Assembly: GCF_003991155.1 (NCBI RefSeq)
Contig: NZ_CP031293.1
Reading direction: 5' to 3' (one strand)
DNA length: 64,000 nucleotides
Source: Escherichia coli
Lineage (GTDB): Bacteria; Pseudomonadota; Gammaproteobacteria; Enterobacterales; Enterobacteriaceae
Below are positions 10,922-64,000 of this stretch, in pieces. The notes under the pieces were generated by a model. The model was given only the letters and a program-made list of their open reading frames with translations, had not been told where the DNA came from and searched no databases. Each line of letters starts with the position of its first letter. The first letter of the stretch is position 1. A program made the translations under genes and the position numbers.

Positions 10922-12196
<1,275 letters not shown>

Positions 12197-13364: not shown

Positions 13365-15722
13365 ATGAAAAAACGTATCCCCACTCTCCTGGCCACCATG
13401 ATTGCCACCGCCCTTTATAGTCAACAGGGACTGGCAGCCGACCTCGCCTCACAGTGCATGTTGGGCGTGCCAAGCTATGACCGTCCTCTGGTACAGGGCG
13501 ATACCAATGACTTACCCGTGACTATCAATGCTGACCACGCGAAAGGGGACTACCCGGATGACGCCGTGTTTACTGGCAGCGTGGATATCATGCAGGGTAA
13601 CAGCCGTCTGCAGGCCGACGAAGTGCAGCTCCATCAAAAAGAGGCACCAGGACAACCGGAGCCGGTACGTACCGTTGATGCGCTCGGTAATGTCCATTAC
13701 GACGATAACCAGGTGATCCTCAAAGGGCCGAAAGGCTGGGCGAATCTGAACACCAAAGATACCAACGTCTGGGAGGGTGATTACCAGATGGTGGGTCGCC
13801 AGGGTCGCGGTAAAGCGGACCTGATGAAACAACGTGGCGAAAACCGCTATACCATTCTGGATAACGGTAGCTTTACCTCCTGTCTGCCGGGTTCTGACAC
13901 CTGGAGCGTGGTAGGTAGCGAAATTATTCATGACCGCGAAGAACAAGTTGCGGAGATCTGGAACGCCCGCTTTAAGGTGGGTCCGGTACCGATCTTTTAT
14001 AGCCCCTATTTGCAGTTGCCGGTGGGTGACAAACGTCGCTCTGGTTTCTTGATCCCGAACGCCAAGTACACCACCACCAACTACTTTGAGTTCTACCTGC
14101 CGTATTACTGGAACATCGCGCCAAATATGGATGCCACCATCACGCCGCATTATATGCATCGTCGTGGCAACATTATGTGGGAAAACGAATTCCGTTATCT
14201 CACCCAGGCGGGCGCAGGCTTGATGGAACTGGACTATCTGCCTTCGGATAAAGTCTATGAAGATGAACATCCAGAAGATAGCAATTCACGCCGTTGGTTG
14301 TTCTACTGGCAACACTCCGGAGTGATGGATCAGGTTTGGCGCTTTAACATCGACTACACCAAAGTCAGCGACCCGACCTATTTCAATGATTTTGATAATA
14401 AATATGGTTCCAGTACCGATGGCTACGCCACGCAAAAATTCAGCGTGGGCTATGCGGTGCAGAACTTTGACGCCACGCTTTCGACTAAACAATTCCAGGT
14501 TTTTGATGATACCAGTGGCAACAGCTATGCCGCTGAACCGCAGTTAGACGTCAACTACTACCATAACGATCTCGGCCCGTTTGATACCCGTGTTTATGGT
14601 CAGGCAGTGCATTTTGTTAATACAAACAGCAATATGCCGGAGGCTACTCGCGTTCATCTGGAGCCGACGATCAACCTGCCGTTATCTAACACCTGGGGCA
14701 GTATCAATACCGAAGCGAAGCTGCTGGCGACCCATTATCAGCAGACCAATCTCGACTGGTATAACAGCAACCCACAAAACAATAAGCTGGCTGATTCTGT
14801 TAACCGCGTAATGCCGCAATTTAAAGTTGACGGCAAAATGGTCTTCGAACGTGATATGGAAATGCTGGCGCCGGGTTATACCCAAACGCTGGAGCCGCGC
14901 GCGCAATACCTGTATGTACCGTATCGCGATCAGAGCGACATCTATAACTACGACTCCTCCTTGCTGCAATCCGATTACTCGGGCCTGTTCCGGGACCGGA
15001 CTTATGGCGGTCTTGACCGTATAGCTTCCGCGAACCAGGTCACGACCGGTATCACAACTCGCGTATATGATGATGCAGCCGTTGAACGTTTTAATATTTC
15101 CGTTGGTCAAATCTACTATTTCACGGAGTCTCGCACTGGCGATGACAACATAACATGGGAGAATGACGACAAAACGGGCTCGCTGGTGTGGGCAGGCGAT
15201 ACTTACTGGCGTATCTCCGAGCGTTGGGGATTGCGTGGCGGGATTCAGTACGATACACGTCTGGATAACGTAGCGACCAGTAACTCCAGCATTGAATACC
15301 GTCGGGATGAAGACCGTCTGGTACAGCTGAATTACCGTTACGCCAGCCCGGAATATATTCAGGCTACGCTGCCTAAGTACTATTCCACAGCTGAGCAATA
15401 TAAGAATGGTATTTCACAGGTAGGTGCCGTCGCCAGCTGGCCAATTGCCGATCGTTGGTCAATTGTTGGGGCCTACTATTACGACACCAATGCGAACAAG
15501 CAAGCCGACTCTATGTTAGGTGTGCAATACAGCTCCTGCTGCTATGCAATTCGCGTCGGTTACGAGCGGAAGCTGAACGGTTGGGATAACGATAAACAAC
15601 ATGCGGTATATGACAACGCAATCGGCTTTAACATCGAACTTCGCGGCCTGAGCTCCAACTACGGTCTGGGTACGCAAGAGATGCTGCGTTCGAACATTCT
15701 GCCGTATCAAAACACTTTGTGA
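13365..15722 (+). CDS. lptD: LPS-assembly outer-membrane protein LptD (Imp/OstA)
   Basis: 785-aa ORF beginning [24 protein letters not shown] (signal peptide). Confidence 0.96.
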
Positions 15723-15774
15723 TTTGTTGATTTACCACGTAATCCGCAGTGCGGTTAATTGAAATGGAAAAAGT

Positions 15775-18868
<3,094 letters not shown>

Positions 18869-42225: not shown

Positions 42226-42264
42226 GAGAATATTCACTCACTTTATTTGCATATTAATTCACAA
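42226..42264 (-). promoter_or_regulatory. carAB P2 promoter with tandem ArgR (ARG) boxes
   Basis: Minus strand reads TGTGAATTAATATGCAAATAAAGTGAGTGAATATTCTCTGGAGGG immediately upstream of the carA TTG; two TnTGAAT-N8-ATTCAnA-like boxes. Confidence 0.8.
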
Positions 42265-42587
42265 TGATGACGTAAATCAATGCAAATCTGCTTACCGACG
42301 AATTTCTGGCAAACGGCGGCATTCTGGAGATATGGGCGCTAAAAGTCAACTTAATGGCGGGATTTTTTATATTATTTTGTGGCTCATGCATGTTTTACAG
42401 GCATTAAGCGACAAAAAGATCATATAACATGTTCTGGAAAACGCTTGCGCAGCAAGAAGATTGCATGAAATCAAAATGAGCAGAAAAAAGTGGACCAAAT
42501 GGTCAAAATTTACATTAAAACAACAAAAACAGAATGCAAAACATGTAATTTTCGGCATTTGCATTAAATTTAAAAGCATAACACTAA

Positions 42588-57061: not shown

Positions 57062-57312
57062 TTTTTATTTCTCTTTCAGGTGAATAGATCGTTTTTACTA
57101 TTTTACCCCGCACGAATCATCGTTAAAATCAGATTATAGTGTAGGAATAATTCGTTTTTTACGAACCATTGAAGGATTTGTGCCATCAGCGATGAGATGA
57201 GTTTTTGACGGCTGTAAGCGCTCACGAGTGACCCTAAGCCCTGATAATCATAGCTTAAGGTCAGGATTTCTGAGGGATTAATTAGGAAAAGTAATAATAA
57301 AATCGCACTGTG

Positions 57313-58557
57313 CTATAGCTGTTTATTCCAGAGATGCTTGAAAATATCTAATGTTGAGACAACATTGGCAGGCGACATTCGGTTTAATGAGGGTAGAAAG
57401 GGATGAGCCTCCAGGAAGTTGATAAAACGAGTCGCGCTTGCTAACGTCGAATACCGCATTTCATTTGCTTTCTTGTTTCCTGTAAGGTTACAAACAGCCA
57501 TTGAATAATCACGGGCGGAAAATGTACGCCAAACATTATTTCTCACGCCACCACTCAAAAACAACCGCGGCGGCGTATCATAATGAGTCGTTTTCTCGCC
57601 GCGTTCTTTCACAAATGAAATATGGCACCGGCCTTGATGAATATGCTGTAAATTAGCCATTAGACAACCGCCTAATATAAAGCACTCGTGATCAAGGTAG
57701 TGTTGAATATTTATAGAATATGCTTCAGTCAGTGCTCTAACCAGTTCAAAATGGCGATACGCCGGAAGAACCGGTTTCACCAGCATCCCCGGATCGTTTT
57801 GATGTAATATCGCCCGACCATAATCAATATCAAATAAGGTATCACGCCGCATAGTAAGTAACTCCTTGCGTTGTACGTGATGCGCCAGTGTCCCTGGAGA
57901 CAAACGCTCTTCATAACTTGATGCATATTGATAATGCGACTCTACCGCTGATGAAGAATAATTTGTTGAAATAGCGACGACTCTACCGCTTTGTTCTTCT
58001 GCGGTAACAAGACTATAAAGATAGTTGTTACTACCGTTAAACTTTACGCGAAAAGCGCGGGTAGATAGAGAAATATCAGAAGCAGAAGAGTATTGGCAAC
58101 TTTCTTTATAGTTTACTTCCCGGGCTAGTTTCATCAACTCACGGTTAAGCCCTGTGCTATTAAGAAGTAATAATTTACGGATATCTGCAAGTGAAGCACC
58201 TTGATCAATCATCAATGCTAAATGTGTTCTTCGCGGCGTTGTATTTACATGATCCAGAGTGATAAAAGTTCTGGAACAATGATGACAATACATTCTCCTC
58301 TGCCCCTGAGCTGAATAGCCATACTTTTTCAGAGATGTGCTTCCGCAAGCTGGACATTGTGAAACCACCCCTCTCCATGAATGATTAACACGATTACGAT
58401 AAATATTAAGAGATCGTTCAGATATCACAGGAAACAAGTAACCGCATTCCCGACATAAAATATTTTTGCCTTGTGCAATATAATCCTGGCTATTCAACAA
58501 CCCCAGGTTTTTGCATCCTGGTGTTTTGCAACAATCAACATTTACGTTGGTAAACAT
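57313..58557 (-). CDS. Hypothetical Cys-rich protein with two N-terminal zinc-ribbon-like CxxC pairs (InsA-like finger), accessory
   Basis: ORF-track frame 57313-58593 (426 aa); start placed at the internal ATG with SD AGGGAG (MFTNVNVDCCKTPGC...), giving 414 aa; CRECG, CPACGSTSLKKYGYSAQGQRRMYCHHCSRTF; no CxxxCxxC radical-SAM motif. Confidence 0.6.
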   Translation of the reverse strand: MFTNVNVDCCKTPGCKNLGLLNSQDYIAQGKNILCRECGYLFPVISERSLNIYRNRVNHSWRGVVSQCPACGSTSLKKYGYSAQGQRRMYCHHCSRTFITLDHVNTTPRRTHLALMIDQGASLADIRKLLLLNSTGLNRELMKLAREVNYKESCQYSSASDISLSTRAFRVKFNGSNNYLYSLVTAEEQSGRVVAISTNYSSSAVESHYQYASSYEERLSPGTLAHHVQRKELLTMRRDTLFDIDYGRAILHQNDPGMLVKPVLPAYRHFELVRALTEAYSINIQHYLDHECFILGGCLMANLQHIHQGRCHISFVKERGEKTTHYDTPPRLFLSGGVRNNVWRTFSARDYSMAVCNLTGNKKANEMRYSTLASATRFINFLEAHPFLPSLNRMSPANVVSTLDIFKHLWNKQL

Positions 58558-58686
58558 ATTCACTCCCTGCGAATACCCGGATATTATCGTCATATGTCAA
58601 AGAAAAGAACCTGATTCAATGTGTAACATTGAATCAGGCGGGCATAGCCCTGAAAGGCATACATTACATTTATTATGGTTATCAGA

Positions 58687-60180
58687 TTAGCCCCAGGTTA
58701 CCGCTTCCGGTTTATCACCTCTGGCTTTCATTAATGAATCATTATCAATATCGGCTTTATACTTTAAGAACTTACCATACATTTGTTTTTCAATGTCTGG
58801 ATTTTTACCTATCTGATTAATGGTCTCAAAACGATCGGTTTTGAGGTTGTATAGGTACTTTGGCTTATTGTTACGATCGATGATCATTTTCCAGTCACCA
58901 TCACGTATCGCCCATTCGTCGGTTGGATCATCCTGGAATGGCATGTCAATTCCGAAGATTAATGGCTTTTCACGTTTTAGCGCTTTGTTCTCAAGGACAG
59001 GAACCAACGATTCGCCATCAAAAGTGCGGTCTGTCGGTAATTTGAAGTTCATCATTTTCGCCAGCGTAGGCATCCAGTCCAGCCCATAAACAGGCGTATC
59101 TGAAACCATTCCCTTTGGAAGATGCTTTCCGTATTTAATAATCGCCGGAACACGGATGCCACCTTCCCAGAGATTATCCTTGCGACCACGTAATCCATCA
59201 GTTTCCCCTGCCAAATTCAGTTCATAAACTTTACGTGCTTCACGGGTTACTGGGCCGTTATCACTGGTAAAAATAACGATGGTGTTATCTTCTTCACCCA
59301 TCGCTTTGATTTTATCCAGTACTTTTCCAACCTGAGCATCCAGATAACTGATGTTGGCATAATATTCTCCTGGACCACGCCAGGGTTTATCCGCCCAGTC
59401 GCCATAAAATAAATCAGGATGCTGCTTCTGATATTCGCTCATATATTGTGAGTACATGTCGAGGTATTTTTTGGGCGAAGCCAGGGGACTGTGCACTTCG
59501 GTAAAAGCGACATAAAGGAAGAAAGGCTTACTGTCCTTTTTGTTATCCAACCAGTTGACGACTTCCGAACTGACATACTCACCACTCATTTTATCGGAAC
59601 GTGGTGTGGGTTGCCCGTTACGCAACCAGCCCGTTGGATAGACCATGCCAAAACGGGGACGCTCCTTCGCATTATCCAGAGTAGCGTCGGTAACAAAACC
59701 CGCCGTATTAACCAGTGAGTAATCAAAGCCCATATCTTTTGCCTGCGGCTGATCGGTGCGATCGCCGCCTGCATTCAGATGCAGCTTACCCATCATGGCC
59801 GTGTCGTACCCTTGCGCTTTGAGTAGATTAGCAATCGTGAGTTCATTACGCCCTAATGCCACATCTTTTCCCGTTGGGATCCATGAGCGTATGCCGGTAC
59901 GAAATGGCATCCGCCCTGTTAATAGTCCCGCCCGTGAAGGAGAACTTAAGGGGGCAGGTGCATAATAGTCGGTAAATTTGACGCCTTCCTGGGCAAGCCT
60001 GTCTATATTGGGCGTTTTAACGATCTGATGTCCATATGTTGCCAAATCACCATAGCCTAAATCATCCGCCATAATGATGACTAAATTGGGTTGTTTAGTT
60101 TCGGCGGCTACGGCTGGATTAAAAGCATTCCCTGTGCAAACTGCAAGGCCGATCAAACTGGCCATTAATGTTTTCTGCAT
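58687..60180 (-). CDS. Ser-type sulfatase (periplasmic), accessory
   Basis: ORF-track frame 58687-60216; start placed at MQKTLMASLIGLAVC (signal peptide), giving 497 aa; sulfatase signature SSPSRAGLLTGR with Ser at the formylglycine position; IIMADDLGYGD N-terminal motif. Confidence 0.85.
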   Translation of the reverse strand: MQKTLMASLIGLAVCTGNAFNPAVAAETKQPNLVIIMADDLGYGDLATYGHQIVKTPNIDRLAQEGVKFTDYYAPAPLSSPSRAGLLTGRMPFRTGIRSWIPTGKDVALGRNELTIANLLKAQGYDTAMMGKLHLNAGGDRTDQPQAKDMGFDYSLVNTAGFVTDATLDNAKERPRFGMVYPTGWLRNGQPTPRSDKMSGEYVSSEVVNWLDNKKDSKPFFLYVAFTEVHSPLASPKKYLDMYSQYMSEYQKQHPDLFYGDWADKPWRGPGEYYANISYLDAQVGKVLDKIKAMGEEDNTIVIFTSDNGPVTREARKVYELNLAGETDGLRGRKDNLWEGGIRVPAIIKYGKHLPKGMVSDTPVYGLDWMPTLAKMMNFKLPTDRTFDGESLVPVLENKALKREKPLIFGIDMPFQDDPTDEWAIRDGDWKMIIDRNNKPKYLYNLKTDRFETINQIGKNPDIEKQMYGKFLKYKADIDNDSLMKARGDKPEAVTWG

Positions 60181-60199
60181 AATTATTCCCTGATGAAAA

Positions 60200-60961
60200 T
60201 TAGAAATCATAACCAAGCATATAAATCATTTGATCGCCAAAACCATCGTAGCCCAACTTATTATCGAAATAACGCCACGTCACACTGGCTTTCCAGCGAG
60301 GATAGAACTTCCAGGCCACTGTTAAACCGCCATTTAGCCCATTCCGACCAAATTGTTGTTCCGCATAGGCATCATTTCTGTCCAGTTCTATTTCATTCCA
60401 GTTAGATAAAACAAATTTTTCGTCAAATAACGTAAAAGGTAATACTGCTGTCCAGCCAACAACATAACCATTCCAGCCATTTGTTTGTCCATATTTGGCT
60501 GAGACGTAGTCTCCAGATTGATTATGCAATCCAATATACGGTTTAAAAAACCCCCATGAACCATTCCAGCCGAGGTAGCCCAAACCATAAAACATATCAA
60601 GATCGTCACCCCATGAGTTATCCCATTGACCATAGATCTTGCCAAAGAAAGTCATATTGGAGTCAAAGAGTCTGACATGTGTCATAGCAGAAACGGTATG
60701 ATTACGCCCCGCTACGGCATGGTTAAGCACATTGCTTTCATAAAATGAGTAAAACTCGGCTTCTTTAAAATTCACACCAAAGTCTGCAGTCACTTTCCAT
60801 ACTTCACCACGATGAGTGTTAACGAAGCCACTATTCCAGTCAGCATAACCTGCATTTATTGAGCCAAAGGAACCTTTATATTCTAATGAAGAATATGCAG
60901 GAAGGTGATAGAAAATCGTTGTCAGGGCACACGCAATAAGAAGCCGTCTTTTGGCAGACAT
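60200..60961 (-). CDS. Tsx-like outer-membrane beta-barrel channel, accessory
   Basis: 253-aa ORF with signal peptide, W/Y/G/N-rich alternating segments, C-terminal aromatic (…LGYDF) typical of OM beta-barrels; resembles the Tsx C-terminus (…VGYNF). Confidence 0.65.
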   Translation of the reverse strand: MSAKRRLLIACALTTIFYHLPAYSSLEYKGSFGSINAGYADWNSGFVNTHRGEVWKVTADFGVNFKEAEFYSFYESNVLNHAVAGRNHTVSAMTHVRLFDSNMTFFGKIYGQWDNSWGDDLDMFYGLGYLGWNGSWGFFKPYIGLHNQSGDYVSAKYGQTNGWNGYVVGWTAVLPFTLFDEKFVLSNWNEIELDRNDAYAEQQFGRNGLNGGLTVAWKFYPRWKASVTWRYFDNKLGYDGFGDQMIYMLGYDF

Positions 60962-61469
60962 ATAATATGCTCTCCATTCATTGTTTTTATGGTTCCATAG
61001 AAATCAATACATCAGATAATTCATTTTGATTAAGAACGACTCAGAAAGTATATTTAAAGGTGAATGGCAAAGCGTGATGGAGATCGCAGATTACTTTTAC
61101 CCCCGGGTGTGGAGGTATCGTGTTTCAAAAAATGTGTCGATTTTAAATATCACTCATTGATTTATAAACATTTTTCCTCACAAAAAGAAAATTCAATTCT
61201 GTACAAGAATATTTTGTATCTTCTATTACTTTCTCCAGTAATAACTCACCATTCAGGCATAACTTAAACCTCTTGTTCATAATCTCAACTTTTGTAAATG
61301 AAAACGCACATAAGAGTTAAAATAAACAATGTACTAAAGATTGATTACGCAAAAATGCGAGGCGTCTTCAGGATTAGAATCGATAAAACAGAATGGGTTA
61401 AAGAGAGCGATATAATAGCGGCGGGTGCTTGAGGCTGTCTGTCTCAGGCATTAGCTGAACGGCAGATAG

Positions 61470-61540
61470 AGAAAAGCCCCGAGTGATATTTTACCATCAA
61501 CCCGAGGCCCCCTATATGCAGAACACATGTAGAGTGCCTC
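61470..61540 (-). ncRNA. sokC: Putative SokC antisense RNA (approximate)
   Basis: Placed by analogy with hok/sok loci, where Sok is antisense to the mok translation-initiation region; boundaries not determined from the sequence. Confidence 0.3.
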
Positions 61541-61725
61541 TTACTGACCGTAAGGTCAAGGAGAAGAGAGCAATGAAGCAGCATAAGGCGATGATTGTCG
61601 CCCTGATCGTCATCTGTATCACCGCCGTAGTGGCGGCGCTGGTAACGAGAAAAGACCTCTGTGAGGTTCACATCCGAACTGGCCAGACGGAGGTTGCTGT
61701 TTTCACGGCTTACGAATCCGAGTAA
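61516..61725 (+). CDS. mokC: MokC, regulatory ORF overlapping hokC
   Basis: ORF-track frame 61483-61725; Met at MQNTCRVPLTDRKVKEKRA, running into the Hok frame. Confidence 0.7.
   Translation: MQNTCRVPLTDRKVKEKRAMKQHKAMIVALIVICITAVVAALVTRKDLCEVHIRTGQTEVAVFTAYESE
61573..61725 (+). CDS. hokC: HokC small membrane toxin (type I toxin-antitoxin)
   Basis: MKQHKAMIVALIVICITAVVAALVTRKDLCEVHIRTGQTEVAVFTAYESE, 50 aa; Hok/Gef family. Confidence 0.88.
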   Translation: MKQHKAMIVALIVICITAVVAALVTRKDLCEVHIRTGQTEVAVFTAYESE

Positions 61726-61828
61726 GAGCAACGGCGGGGAGTGATCCCCGCCACTTTACAGGTGCTCGCATATCTTCAACGCACCCTATTTTTACCCTGG
61801 CCTGCCCACGGGCAGGCTTTTGGGGAGG

Positions 61829-62959
61829 TTAGCGAGTCAGGTCGTCAAAAAACTTCTTCACACCATCAAAGAAGCTCTTTGAACGCGGGCTGTTGTGCTC
61901 ACCGGTTGGGCCACCGAAGCTTTCCTGCAGCTCTTGCAGCAGCTGTTTCTGCTTCTCGTTCAGGCCTACCGGTGTTTCGACGACAACGCGGCACAGCAAA
62001 TCACCCTGTGCGCCACCGCGGACAGACTTGACGCCTTTACCGCGCATACGGAACAGCTTACCGGTCTGGGTTTCGCCAGGCACTTTCAGTTTGACGCGAC
62101 CATCAAGGGTCGGTACTTCGATTTCGCCACCCAGCGCCGCCATAGCGAAGTTGATCGGGACTTCGCAATAGAGGTTGTTGCCTTCACGCTCGAAAATCGG
62201 GTGCTGTTTAACCTGAACCTGAACGTACAGATCGCCTGCCGGTGCGCCATGCTCGCCCGCTTCACCTTCGCCCGCAAGACGGATGCGGTCTCCAGTGTCC
62301 ACCCCTGCCGGGATTTTAACGGACAGCGTTTTGCTGCGCTCAACACGACCATGACCATGACATTTGTTGCACGGATCTTTGATCAGCGTACCGCGGCCCT
62401 GACAGTGTGGACAGGTCTGCTGCACGGCAAAGAAACCCTGGCGCATCTGCACCTGACCAGAACCATGACAGGTCGGACAGGTCTGCGGCTGTGTACCTGG
62501 TTTTGCACCGCTACCGTGGCAAACGTCACACTCTTCCAGAGTCGGAATGCGGATCTCTTTGGTCACGCCACGTACAGCTTCTTCGAGGGTGAGCTCCATG
62601 TTATAGCGTAAATCAGCACCGCGCGCCGCACGTTGACGACCACGTCCGCCGCCAAAAATATCGCCGAAAACGTCACCAAAAATATCGCTGAAGTCTGCGC
62701 CGCCGCCAAAACCGCCGCCGCCCATGCCGCCTTGCTCAAACGCAGCATGACCATACTGATCGTATGCCGCACGTTTTTGCGAGTCGGTCAGAACTTCATA
62801 AGCTTCCTTGATCTCTTTAAATTTCGCCTCGGCCTCTTTGTCACCCTGGTTACGGTCCGGGTGGTATTTCATGGCCAGGCGTTTGTAGGCCTTTTTGATT
62901 TCACGCTCTTCCGCTGTTTTGGAAACGCCTAAAATCTCGTAATAATCTTGCTTAGCCAT
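61829..62959 (-). CDS. dnaJ: Chaperone DnaJ (Hsp40)
   Basis: ORF-track frame 61829-62989; start placed at [35 protein letters not shown], giving 376 aa; G/F region and CxxCxGxG zinc fingers. Confidence 0.97.
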
Positions 62960-63047
62960 CTTTTTTAAATTGCCCCTAGATGAATGCACGGGCGGAGAGG
63001 AAATTCCCCTTCGCCCGTGTCAGTATAATTACCCGTTTATAGGGCGA

Positions 63048-64000
63048 TTATTTTTTGTCTTTGACTTCTTCAAATTCAGCGTCGACAACATCGTCATCTT
63101 TCGCGTTGTTTGCAGAAGCATCAGCACCGGCAGTCTGCTGCTGGGCATGTTGCTGCTGGGCGATTTCCATCAGTTTCTGGGAAACCTGTGCCAGTTCCTG
63201 CATTTTCGCTTCGATAGCGGCTTTGTCTTCACCTTTCAGAGCAGTTTCCAGTGCAGTCAGTGCAGACTCGATAGCAGTTTTGTCGTCAGCCGGCAGTTTG
63301 TCGCCCGCTTCTTCAACCTGCTTACGGGTGCTGTGCAGCAGATGGTCGCCCTGGTTGCGAGTCTGTACCAGCTCTTCAAACTTACGGTCAGCTTCGGCGT
63401 TAGCTTCTGCGTCGCGTACCATTTTCTGGATTTCATCTTCGTTCAGACCAGAAGAAGCCTTGATGGTGATCTTCTGCTCTTTACCGCTGTTTTTATCTTT
63501 CGCGGAAACGTGCAGGATACCGTCAGCATCGATATCGAAGGTAACTTCGATCTGCGGCATGCCGCGCGGTGCCGGGTTGATACCATCCAGGTTGAACTGA
63601 CCCAGAGATTTGTTATCAGCCGCACGTTTACGTTCACCCTGCAGCACGTGGATGGTTACCGCAGACTGGTTGTCTTCAGCGGTAGAGAACACCTGGCTGT
63701 GCTTGGTCGGGATAGTGGTGTTTTTCGCGATCAGCGTCGTCATCACACCGCCCATGGTTTCGATACCCAGAGACAGCGGGGTAACGTCCAGCAGCAGTAC
63801 GTCTTTCACGTCACCAGTCAGAACACCACCCTGAACAGCAGCACCGATTGCTACAGCTTCGTCCGGGTTAACGTCTTTACGCGGCTCTTTACCAAAGAAT
63901 TCAGCAACTTTCTTCTGAACCATTGGCATACGAGTCTGACCACCAACGAGGATAACGTCGTCGATATCAGATACGGACAGGCCAGCGTCCTGCAGTGCAA
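63048..64000 (-). CDS. dnaK: Chaperone DnaK (Hsp70), C-terminal part; 5' end lies beyond the window
   Basis: ORF ends …[18 protein letters not shown]; frame continues to the window edge. Confidence 0.95.

Follow-up and report, generated by a model that had tools for sequence, protein, structure and literature searches.

Genomic context and coding content of the locus

The window, that is, the whole 64,000-nt stretch of Escherichia coli DNA analysed here, harbours near its end a small locus situated between an accessory island beside nhaA and the gene dnaJ (61829-62959, minus strand), the latter being followed by dnaK. The locus comprises two nested toxin reading frames, an antisense RNA and several RNA elements, which are listed below together with the genes of the upstream island.

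57313-58593, minus strand: 426-aa protein with an IS1-type zinc-binding domain
58687-60216, minus strand: sulfatase
60200-60961, minus strand: Tsx-like OmpK porin
61411-61416, plus strand: putative -10 hexamer (TATAAT) of the hokC promoter, read from the sequence 7 nt 5' of the inferred mRNA start at 61423
61423-61826, plus strand: hokC mRNA, full-length, ~404 nt from leader to terminator, as deduced from an Rfam match and the predicted fold
61423-61434, plus strand: predicted tac element at the mRNA 5' end, GGGUGCUUGAGG, pairing with fbi in the minimum free energy (MFE) fold
61524-61466, minus strand: sokC antisense RNA (antitoxin), coordinates mapped from the annotated sokC of K-12 (16952-17010)
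61516-61725, plus strand: mokC ORF, 69 aa
61531-61559, minus strand: putative sokC promoter (-35 TTGACC, 61559-61554; 17-nt spacer; -10 CACTCT, 61536-61531), read from the reverse complement of 61525-61575, with the hexamers deduced from their spacing
61573-61725, plus strand: hokC (gef) toxin ORF, 50 aa, MKQHKAMIVALIVICITAVVAALVTRKDLCEVHIRTGQTEVAVFTAYESE
61733-61752, no strand: perfect 20-bp GC palindrome GGCGGGG-AGTGAT-CCCCGCC (GGCGGGGAGTGATCCCCGCC); a 3'-UTR hairpin as RNA, an unoccupied IS186 target as DNA
61740-61745, no strand: AGTGAT core that is duplicated by IS186 in K-12, according to the junction sequences and the core/target-site-duplication model of PMC5009759
61774-61786, plus strand: predicted fbi (fold-back inhibition) element, CUUCAACGCACCC, pairing with tac in the MFE fold
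61799-61826, plus strand: terminator-like hairpin GGCCUGCCC-ACGG-GGCAGGCC, followed by UUUUGG; folds with -21.6 kcal/mol

The deduced product of hokC is 100% identical to HokC of K-12, and its residues 6-47 match the Pfam family PF01848 (Hok/gef, HOK_GEF) with 85.5 bits, the cut-off being 22. The second ORF, mokC, starts with the ATG at 61516 and constitutes an in-frame N-terminal extension of hokC, the sole difference between its product and MokC of K-12 (b0018) being L2Q. An earlier examination of the same DNA from its letters alone (hereafter the sequence-only reading) had described an intact Hok ORF and an intact, overlapping Mok frame. The translations, the PF01848 match and the identity to K-12 HokC bear out that both are intact, while the overlap is more precisely described as the Hok reading frame itself, extended upstream to 61516. 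It should be noted that the RefSeq/PGAP annotation of most genomes refers to the 50-aa HokC ORF (61573-61725) as “mokC: toxin MokC”. The codon of Tyr47 of HokC (61711-61714) lies in a UACG context (GCUUACGAAUC), which resembles the context of A-to-I editing by TadA; Tyr-to-Cys recoding of the hokB, hokC, hokD and hokE mRNAs has been reported (bioRxiv 10.1101/2025.08.07.668861).

The ORFs end with a TAA stop codon located 7 nt before the palindrome at 61733-61752. As to the extent of the locus, the start at 61470 that had been proposed for it falls short, since the leader begins at 61423 according to the Rfam match, the TATAAT hexamer lies at 61411-61416 and sokC ends at 61466. The 3' limit is set by the terminator hairpin at ~61799-61826, which abuts the stop codon of dnaJ. 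When the IS186 element was removed in silico from the K-12 sequence, only four SNPs (61391, 61510, 61520 and 61798) separated the two strains over 61350-61830, three of them (61510, 61520 and 61798) within the transcript span 61423-61826 and the remaining one (61391) upstream of it. The chromosome of isolate ECCNB12-2 matched a 601-bp query spanning the locus with 100% identity, and 5,425 of the 5,426 complete E. coli genomes possess the locus.

Upstream of hokC, a 4.0-kb segment (57302-61343) containing the first three genes of the list lies between nhaA and hokC in place of 113 bp of K-12. The hokC-proximal part of this segment is present in Escherichia albertii as well, where the orthologous locus (L040) is contiguous with positions 60000-64000 of the window, the comparison having been made from 60000 on. 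As judged from these sequences, the 4.0-kb segment may be ancestral and may have been deleted in K-12. Elsewhere in the window, Rfam matches at the gathering level correspond to known E. coli features, namely tpke11 in the dnaK-dnaJ spacer (62960-63037, minus strand), the sRNA ES003 (42262-42314, minus strand) and naRNA4 (10923-11002, plus strand).

The hokC transcript and its antisense RNA

The sense strand at 61423-61575 matches the Rfam family RF01794 over its full length with 116.9 bits, the gathering score of the family being 59. This family bears the name “sok”, yet since the match lies on the sense strand, it is the hok mRNA leader and not the antisense RNA that the family models. The transcript 61423-61826 folds with an MFE of -173.4 kcal/mol (z = -7.3 against shuffled sequences), and according to the MFE pair table, nucleotides 61423-61434 are predicted to pair with 61786-61774, forming 12 pairs with one bulge. 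When the 3' end was removed (61423-61772), the 5' end was predicted to refold into the local hairpin of the Rfam consensus. Hence, at the level of thermodynamic predictions only, the tac and fbi elements of hok-family mRNAs are present here. The sequence-only reading had allowed that mutations of the fold-back elements might preclude expression of hokC; both elements are retained, however, and are paired in the MFE fold.

Apart from the putative -10 hexamer, no good -35 element was found for the hokC promoter, and a consensus scan revealed no full sigma-70 site on the plus strand. Meanwhile, the stretch 61525-61575, which carries the putative promoter of sokC, contains no SNP compared with K-12. 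The sokC RNA itself differs from that of K-12 at two positions, these being the complements of SNPs in the mRNA, and the antisense region would cover the translation start of mok, as suggested by homology to sokC of K-12. The hairpin at 61799-61826 was not called by the consensus terminator scan because its T-run is only 4 nt long. A match to the Rfam family rpsL_pseudo at 61693-61818 (19.6 bits against a threshold of 70, E = 0.26) was dismissed as a chance hit driven by the two GC hairpins.

The sequence-level features of hok/sok systems that were tested, i.e. the overlap with mok, the position of Sok over the mok start, the (predicted) tac/fbi pairing and the structure of the leader, were all found at this locus.

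The GC palindrome is a hairpin of the hokC 3'-UTR

The GC palindrome occupies exactly the position 61733-61752 given for it by the sequence-only reading and fits the published target of IS186, GGGG(N6/N7)CCCC, whose 6-bp core is duplicated upon insertion (PMC5009759). The G4-N6-C4 motif within it (GGGGAGTGATCCCC, 61736-61749) is the only GGGG-N6-CCCC in the 64-kb window. Its count does not exceed chance expectation, with one occurrence observed against 0.66 expected and at least one occurrence in 40 of 100 shuffled sequences. The junctions of IS186A in K-12 map into the palindrome (see below), and therefore the significance of the site rests on homology rather than on motif statistics. The palindrome had been described as a hotspot next to hokC. 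It does lie directly downstream of the ORF, but it is in fact part of the hokC transcription unit, in which it forms a hairpin of the 3'-UTR, past the stop codon and ahead of fbi.

As RNA, the palindrome folds with -18.5 kcal/mol (z = -4.6). A GC hairpin after the stop codon was found in all 12 hok loci examined, comprising two hokC orthologues (the window and E. albertii), hokE of K-12 and nine more distant homologues (an R1-type locus of E. albertii, chromosomal loci of Citrobacter and Pseudescherichia, and plasmid loci of E. coli, Klebsiella, Enterobacter, Phytobacter, Salmonella and Vibrio). These hairpins have stems of 8-11 bp and begin 5-12 nt past the stop codon, and their stem sequences differ (e.g. 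GGCGGAGG/CCUCCGCC, GAAGAGGG/CCCUCUUC and GGCGGGC/GCCCGCC). The comparison was centred on the loops, with the registers taken from the fold of each sequence, and the resulting 100% pairing is thus partly due to construction; an unguided MAFFT/RNAalifold alignment of 11 hairpin segments shifted the R1-type sequences out of register and disrupted pairs. Six of the 12 hairpins spell G4-N6/7-C4. The IS186 hotspot at hokC is a by-product of a structural hairpin common to the hok mRNAs examined, and the frequent match of this hairpin to the target explains the repeated presence of IS186 at hok loci. Proximity of hok/sok homologues to insertion hotspots of mobile genetic elements had already been noted in a survey (bioRxiv 10.1101/527788).

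One could also regard the palindrome as a transcription terminator, either of hokC or of the convergent dnaJ, whose match to the IS186 target is incidental. The palindrome does lie between convergent genes, and its GC hairpin is strong whichever strand is folded (-18.5 and -19.3 kcal/mol). However, it is not followed by a T-run on either strand (ACTTTACAGG on the plus strand, GTTGCTCTTACT on the minus strand), it was not called by the terminator scan, and a separate hairpin with a T-run is located at 61799-61826. Furthermore, fbi, which is needed for the pairing of the 5' and 3' ends, lies downstream of the palindrome, and plasmid hok loci that have no convergent gene share the post-stop hairpin. 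The terminator explanation, rejected for want of the T-run 3' of the hairpin on both strands, is therefore very improbable.

A scan of a 298-Gb genome collection with the 14-mer GGCTTACGAATCCG proved uninformative, as the pattern is too short: at least 120 loci were returned, nearly all of them by chance, and among the 120 loci with the 14-mer hok genes occurred only in four (L039, L040, L059 and L072). The 14-mer was also observed on 16 contigs (L008-L023) of a single metagenome-assembled genome, Pseudomonadota bacterium C21_maxbin.011, none of which carries a hok gene. Three of these contigs contain it twice, at a distance of 56 bp on two and of 135 bp on the third, and in this organism it is probably a dispersed repeat of the genome.

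Insertion of IS186 in K-12

In K-12, IS186A (1.34 kb) is annotated at 15387-16731, between dnaJ and hokC. K-12 also served as the strain of PMC5009759, and in it the palindrome is already occupied. A BLAST comparison of the K-12 locus with the window yielded two flanks which overlap on 61737-61748. Written in the orientation of the window, the K-12 sequence runs through GGCGGGGAGTGAT into the element, which extends from CCCATAAGCGC to GCGCTTATGGG, and continues with AGTGATCCCCGCC, while the window reads GGCGGGGAGTGATCCCCGCC. IS186A of K-12 is inserted at the exact centre of the palindrome, the arrangement being GGGG-AGTGAT-[IS186]-AGTGAT-CCCC. The length of the duplication in K-12 is ambiguous up to 12 bp (61737-61748) because the termini of the element, CCC/GGG, repeat the target. 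The alignment with K-12 that the sequence-only reading had suggested as a check thus places the junction inside the palindrome and the element, as supposed, between hokC and dnaJ. The same arrangement is seen at hokE of K-12, where the reconstructed target of IS186B is TGCGGGGAGTAATCCCCGCA.

The element fbi lies 28 nt downstream of the insertion point and is displaced by 1.35 kb in K-12. Given this position of the insertion point, IS186 comes to lie between the toxin ORF on one side and fbi with the terminator on the other. In PMC3562002, IS186 in gef of K-12 is described as disrupting fbi, and hokC of strain ECOR24 as carrying no IS element.

In the window, meanwhile, the palindrome is uninterrupted and contains a single AGTGAT, and the site is therefore empty, as had been claimed. 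No copy of IS186 was found within the 64-kb window.

Occupancy of the site in E. coli and its ancestral state

Three states of the site were counted in the complete E. coli genomes possessing the locus, 5,425 in all. The palindrome is empty in 3,814 of them (70%), a site having been scored as empty when a contiguous match covered 80% or more of a 111-nt query spanning it. IS186 is present in the orientation of K-12 in 670 genomes and in the opposite orientation in 922, so that 1,592 genomes are occupied (~29% of the complete genomes, a descriptive figure and not a population frequency, as the genome set is biased towards laboratory derivatives of K-12 and clinical isolates). The three states sum to 5,406 of 5,425. 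The occupied genomes were counted with 2,545-nt constructs consisting of a 300-bp hokC flank, IS186 and a 900-bp dnaJ flank. Shorter queries over-counted: 110-nt junction queries also detected hok paralogues and plasmid hok genes bearing IS186, and 1,945-nt constructs gave 816 and 941 genomes, i.e. more than the 1,611 non-empty ones.

Since both orientations occur with identical junctions and with both flanks kept, at least two independent insertions must have taken place. The insertions in two orientations fit a true IS186 hotspot.

Several occupied sites show peculiarities of their own. Two odd alleles, which were considered as possible excision footprints, were rejected as assembly artefacts of the IS186 copy: in HS-02 (L005, NZ_CP172818.1, 340-390) a run of 17 T lies between the termini of IS186, and in MLI104K2 (L006, NZ_CP116925.1, 3050-3765) ~700 bp of G/C homopolymer noise are annotated as a hypothetical protein. 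In USML2, LD27-1 and H32 (H111, H141 and H142, respectively) the occupied site is 3,391 bp long rather than 1,945 bp, and the match overlaps an annotated IS150-family transposase, which suggests that an IS150 is nested in or located beside the IS186 copy.

The orthologous locus of E. albertii (L040) possesses an identical uninterrupted palindrome. As the site is empty in this species too, the empty state is the ancestral one. It might be argued instead that the window has lost a former IS186 by precise excision, given that IS186 is active in E. coli (PMC5009759) and that both occupied orientations are common. This is extremely unlikely, since neither a footprint nor a duplicated AGTGAT is present at the site, the perfect palindrome is shared with E. 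albertii and 70% of the genomes, the 64-kb window is devoid of IS186, and in a mutation-accumulation study 758 insertions were recorded against a single excision for all IS elements (PMC5009759).

Taken together, the region is best interpreted, with a probability of about 0.9, as the ancestral allele, devoid of an IS, of hokC/mokC/sokC, a type I toxin-antitoxin locus on the E. coli chromosome. The uninterrupted hokC/sokC is the ordinary form of the locus in this species and is already known from the literature. The sequence-only reading had seen in the window and K-12 a clean before/after pair; the pair does illustrate the choice of target by IS186, but the strain is not special in this respect, as it merely displays the majority ancestral state (70%).

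Conservation and proposed function of the locus

Between the window and E. albertii the hokC transcription unit is 98.3% identical; the corresponding values are 95.5% (dnaJ), 97.4% (dnaK) and 69% (upstream intergenic region). A 4-nt insertion at 61763/61764 is the sole indel of the unit, and the HokC proteins are 98% identical. Such a high identity between species could reflect either strong constraint at the nucleotide level or recent exchange. The sequence-only reading had suggested that the strain may keep a functional module; what is demonstrated in this respect is an intact structure and strong conservation, i.e. a locus under constraint.

If the locus works like hok/sok of plasmid R1, a weak promoter with its -10 hexamer at 61411 would give rise to an mRNA of ~400 nt, in which the pairing of tac (61423-61434) with fbi (61774-61786) would render the transcript translationally inert. 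Slow trimming of the 3' end would then take off fbi and allow the 5' end to refold into the local hairpin, whereupon translation of mokC (from 61516) would open that of hokC (from 61573). Binding of the SokC antisense RNA (61524-61466, minus strand) would block the translation of hokC and trigger decay of the mRNA. The 3' processing, the translational coupling of mok and hok and the action of SokC are most likely of this kind, to judge by R1 and the hokC literature. In the mRNA the palindrome is a stem-loop, and as double-stranded DNA it happens to offer the transposase of IS186 a perfect GGGG-N6-CCCC; in the window it has simply never been hit.

The R1-type killing cycle, however, may not fully operate at hokC. 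In tests summarised in bioRxiv 10.1101/2025.08.07.668861, hokC of ECOR24, which lacks the IS, showed neither post-segregational killing (PSK) nor activation by rifampicin. Expression of the HokC coding sequence is toxic (same source). One might go further and consider the locus a structurally intact yet functionally silent relic which produces RNA but never, under natural circumstances, toxin, so that the presence of IS186 would be biologically indifferent. The weak hokC promoter and the fact that IS186 is tolerated in 1,592 genomes are in line with such a view. On the other hand, the locus is retained in 5,425 of 5,426 complete genomes, HokC is conserved to 100% with respect to K-12 and to 98% with respect to E. 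albertii, and its coding sequence is toxic on expression. Moreover, the transcript as a whole is more conserved than dnaJ (98.3% versus 95.5%), which is hard to square with neutrality. A silent relic thus seems unlikely, albeit by no means far-fetched, and a structurally intact locus under constraint remains the preferred interpretation.

Comparison with known systems

The closest counterpart of the locus is the wild-type hokC/sokC of ECOR24 (Pedersen & Gerdes 1999, as reported in PMC3562002 and bioRxiv 10.1101/2025.08.07.668861). According to the descriptions in these two sources, ECOR24 has the same chromosomal locus without IS186, in which fbi and the terminator are contiguous with the ORF, a transcript of ~330-400 nt and a cis-encoded antisense sokC. 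Judged by these descriptions, the locus of the window is the same entity as this published wild-type form.

The gef/sof locus of K-12 encodes an identical HokC, is 99% identical in the leader, sokC and the ORF, and has the same neighbour, dnaJ. It differs in that its 3'-UTR hairpin is interrupted by the 1.34-kb IS186A, an insertion that parts the ORF from fbi and the terminator, and in that it lacks the 4.0-kb island upstream of hokC.

With hok/mok/sok of plasmid R1 the locus shares the 5' tac element, the upstream overlapping mok, the antisense Sok over the mok start, the post-stop GC hairpin, fbi and the terminator. The R1-type Hok of E. albertii (L039), however, is only ~41% identical to HokC, and its hairpin, GGCGGGC-GCAG-GCCCGCC (R1 type), does not match G4N6C4, unlike the palindrome of hokC. 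In addition, hok/sok of R1 mediates PSK, while chromosomal hokC, according to the summary cited above, reportedly does not.

Finally, the site resembles the known IS186 hotspots (the lon promoter, fimA and menC) in its perfect G4-N6-C4 motif, in the duplication of the core and in the occurrence of both orientations. In contrast to these, the motif at hokC owes its existence to an RNA structure, namely the hairpin seen throughout the hok family, and it recurs at paralogues, e.g. hokE.

Implications

Earlier publications already describe the target motif of IS186, the insertion in K-12 with its effect on fbi, the wild-type hokC without an IS and the enrichment of insertions near hok genes. What is added here is the exact mapping of the junctions, the counts of the three states in 5,425 genomes, E. 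albertii as an outgroup and the recognition that the motif is the 3'-UTR hairpin of the family. The significance of the locus beyond its annotation is small. Nonetheless, the before/after pair shows how IS186 chooses its target, namely GGGG-AGTGAT-CCCC with the core duplicated and in both orientations.

The presence of IS186 at hok hairpins might also be a recurrent and possibly selected pairing, in which the element rewires or disables hokC, rather than the neutral use of a hotspot. The occupancy of 29% at hokC, the at least two independent events and the same pattern at hokE may be cited in its favour; still, we consider a selected pairing doubtful. Were it real, hok loci would represent built-in landing pads for IS186, a role for which the spelling of G4-N6/7-C4 by the hairpin in 6 of 12 hok loci would equip them, and each insertion would sever fbi and the terminator from the toxin ORF.

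Since the window carries the uninterrupted allele and IS186 of K-12 removes fbi and the terminator from the toxin transcript, results obtained with hokC of K-12 should be applied to this strain only with caution.
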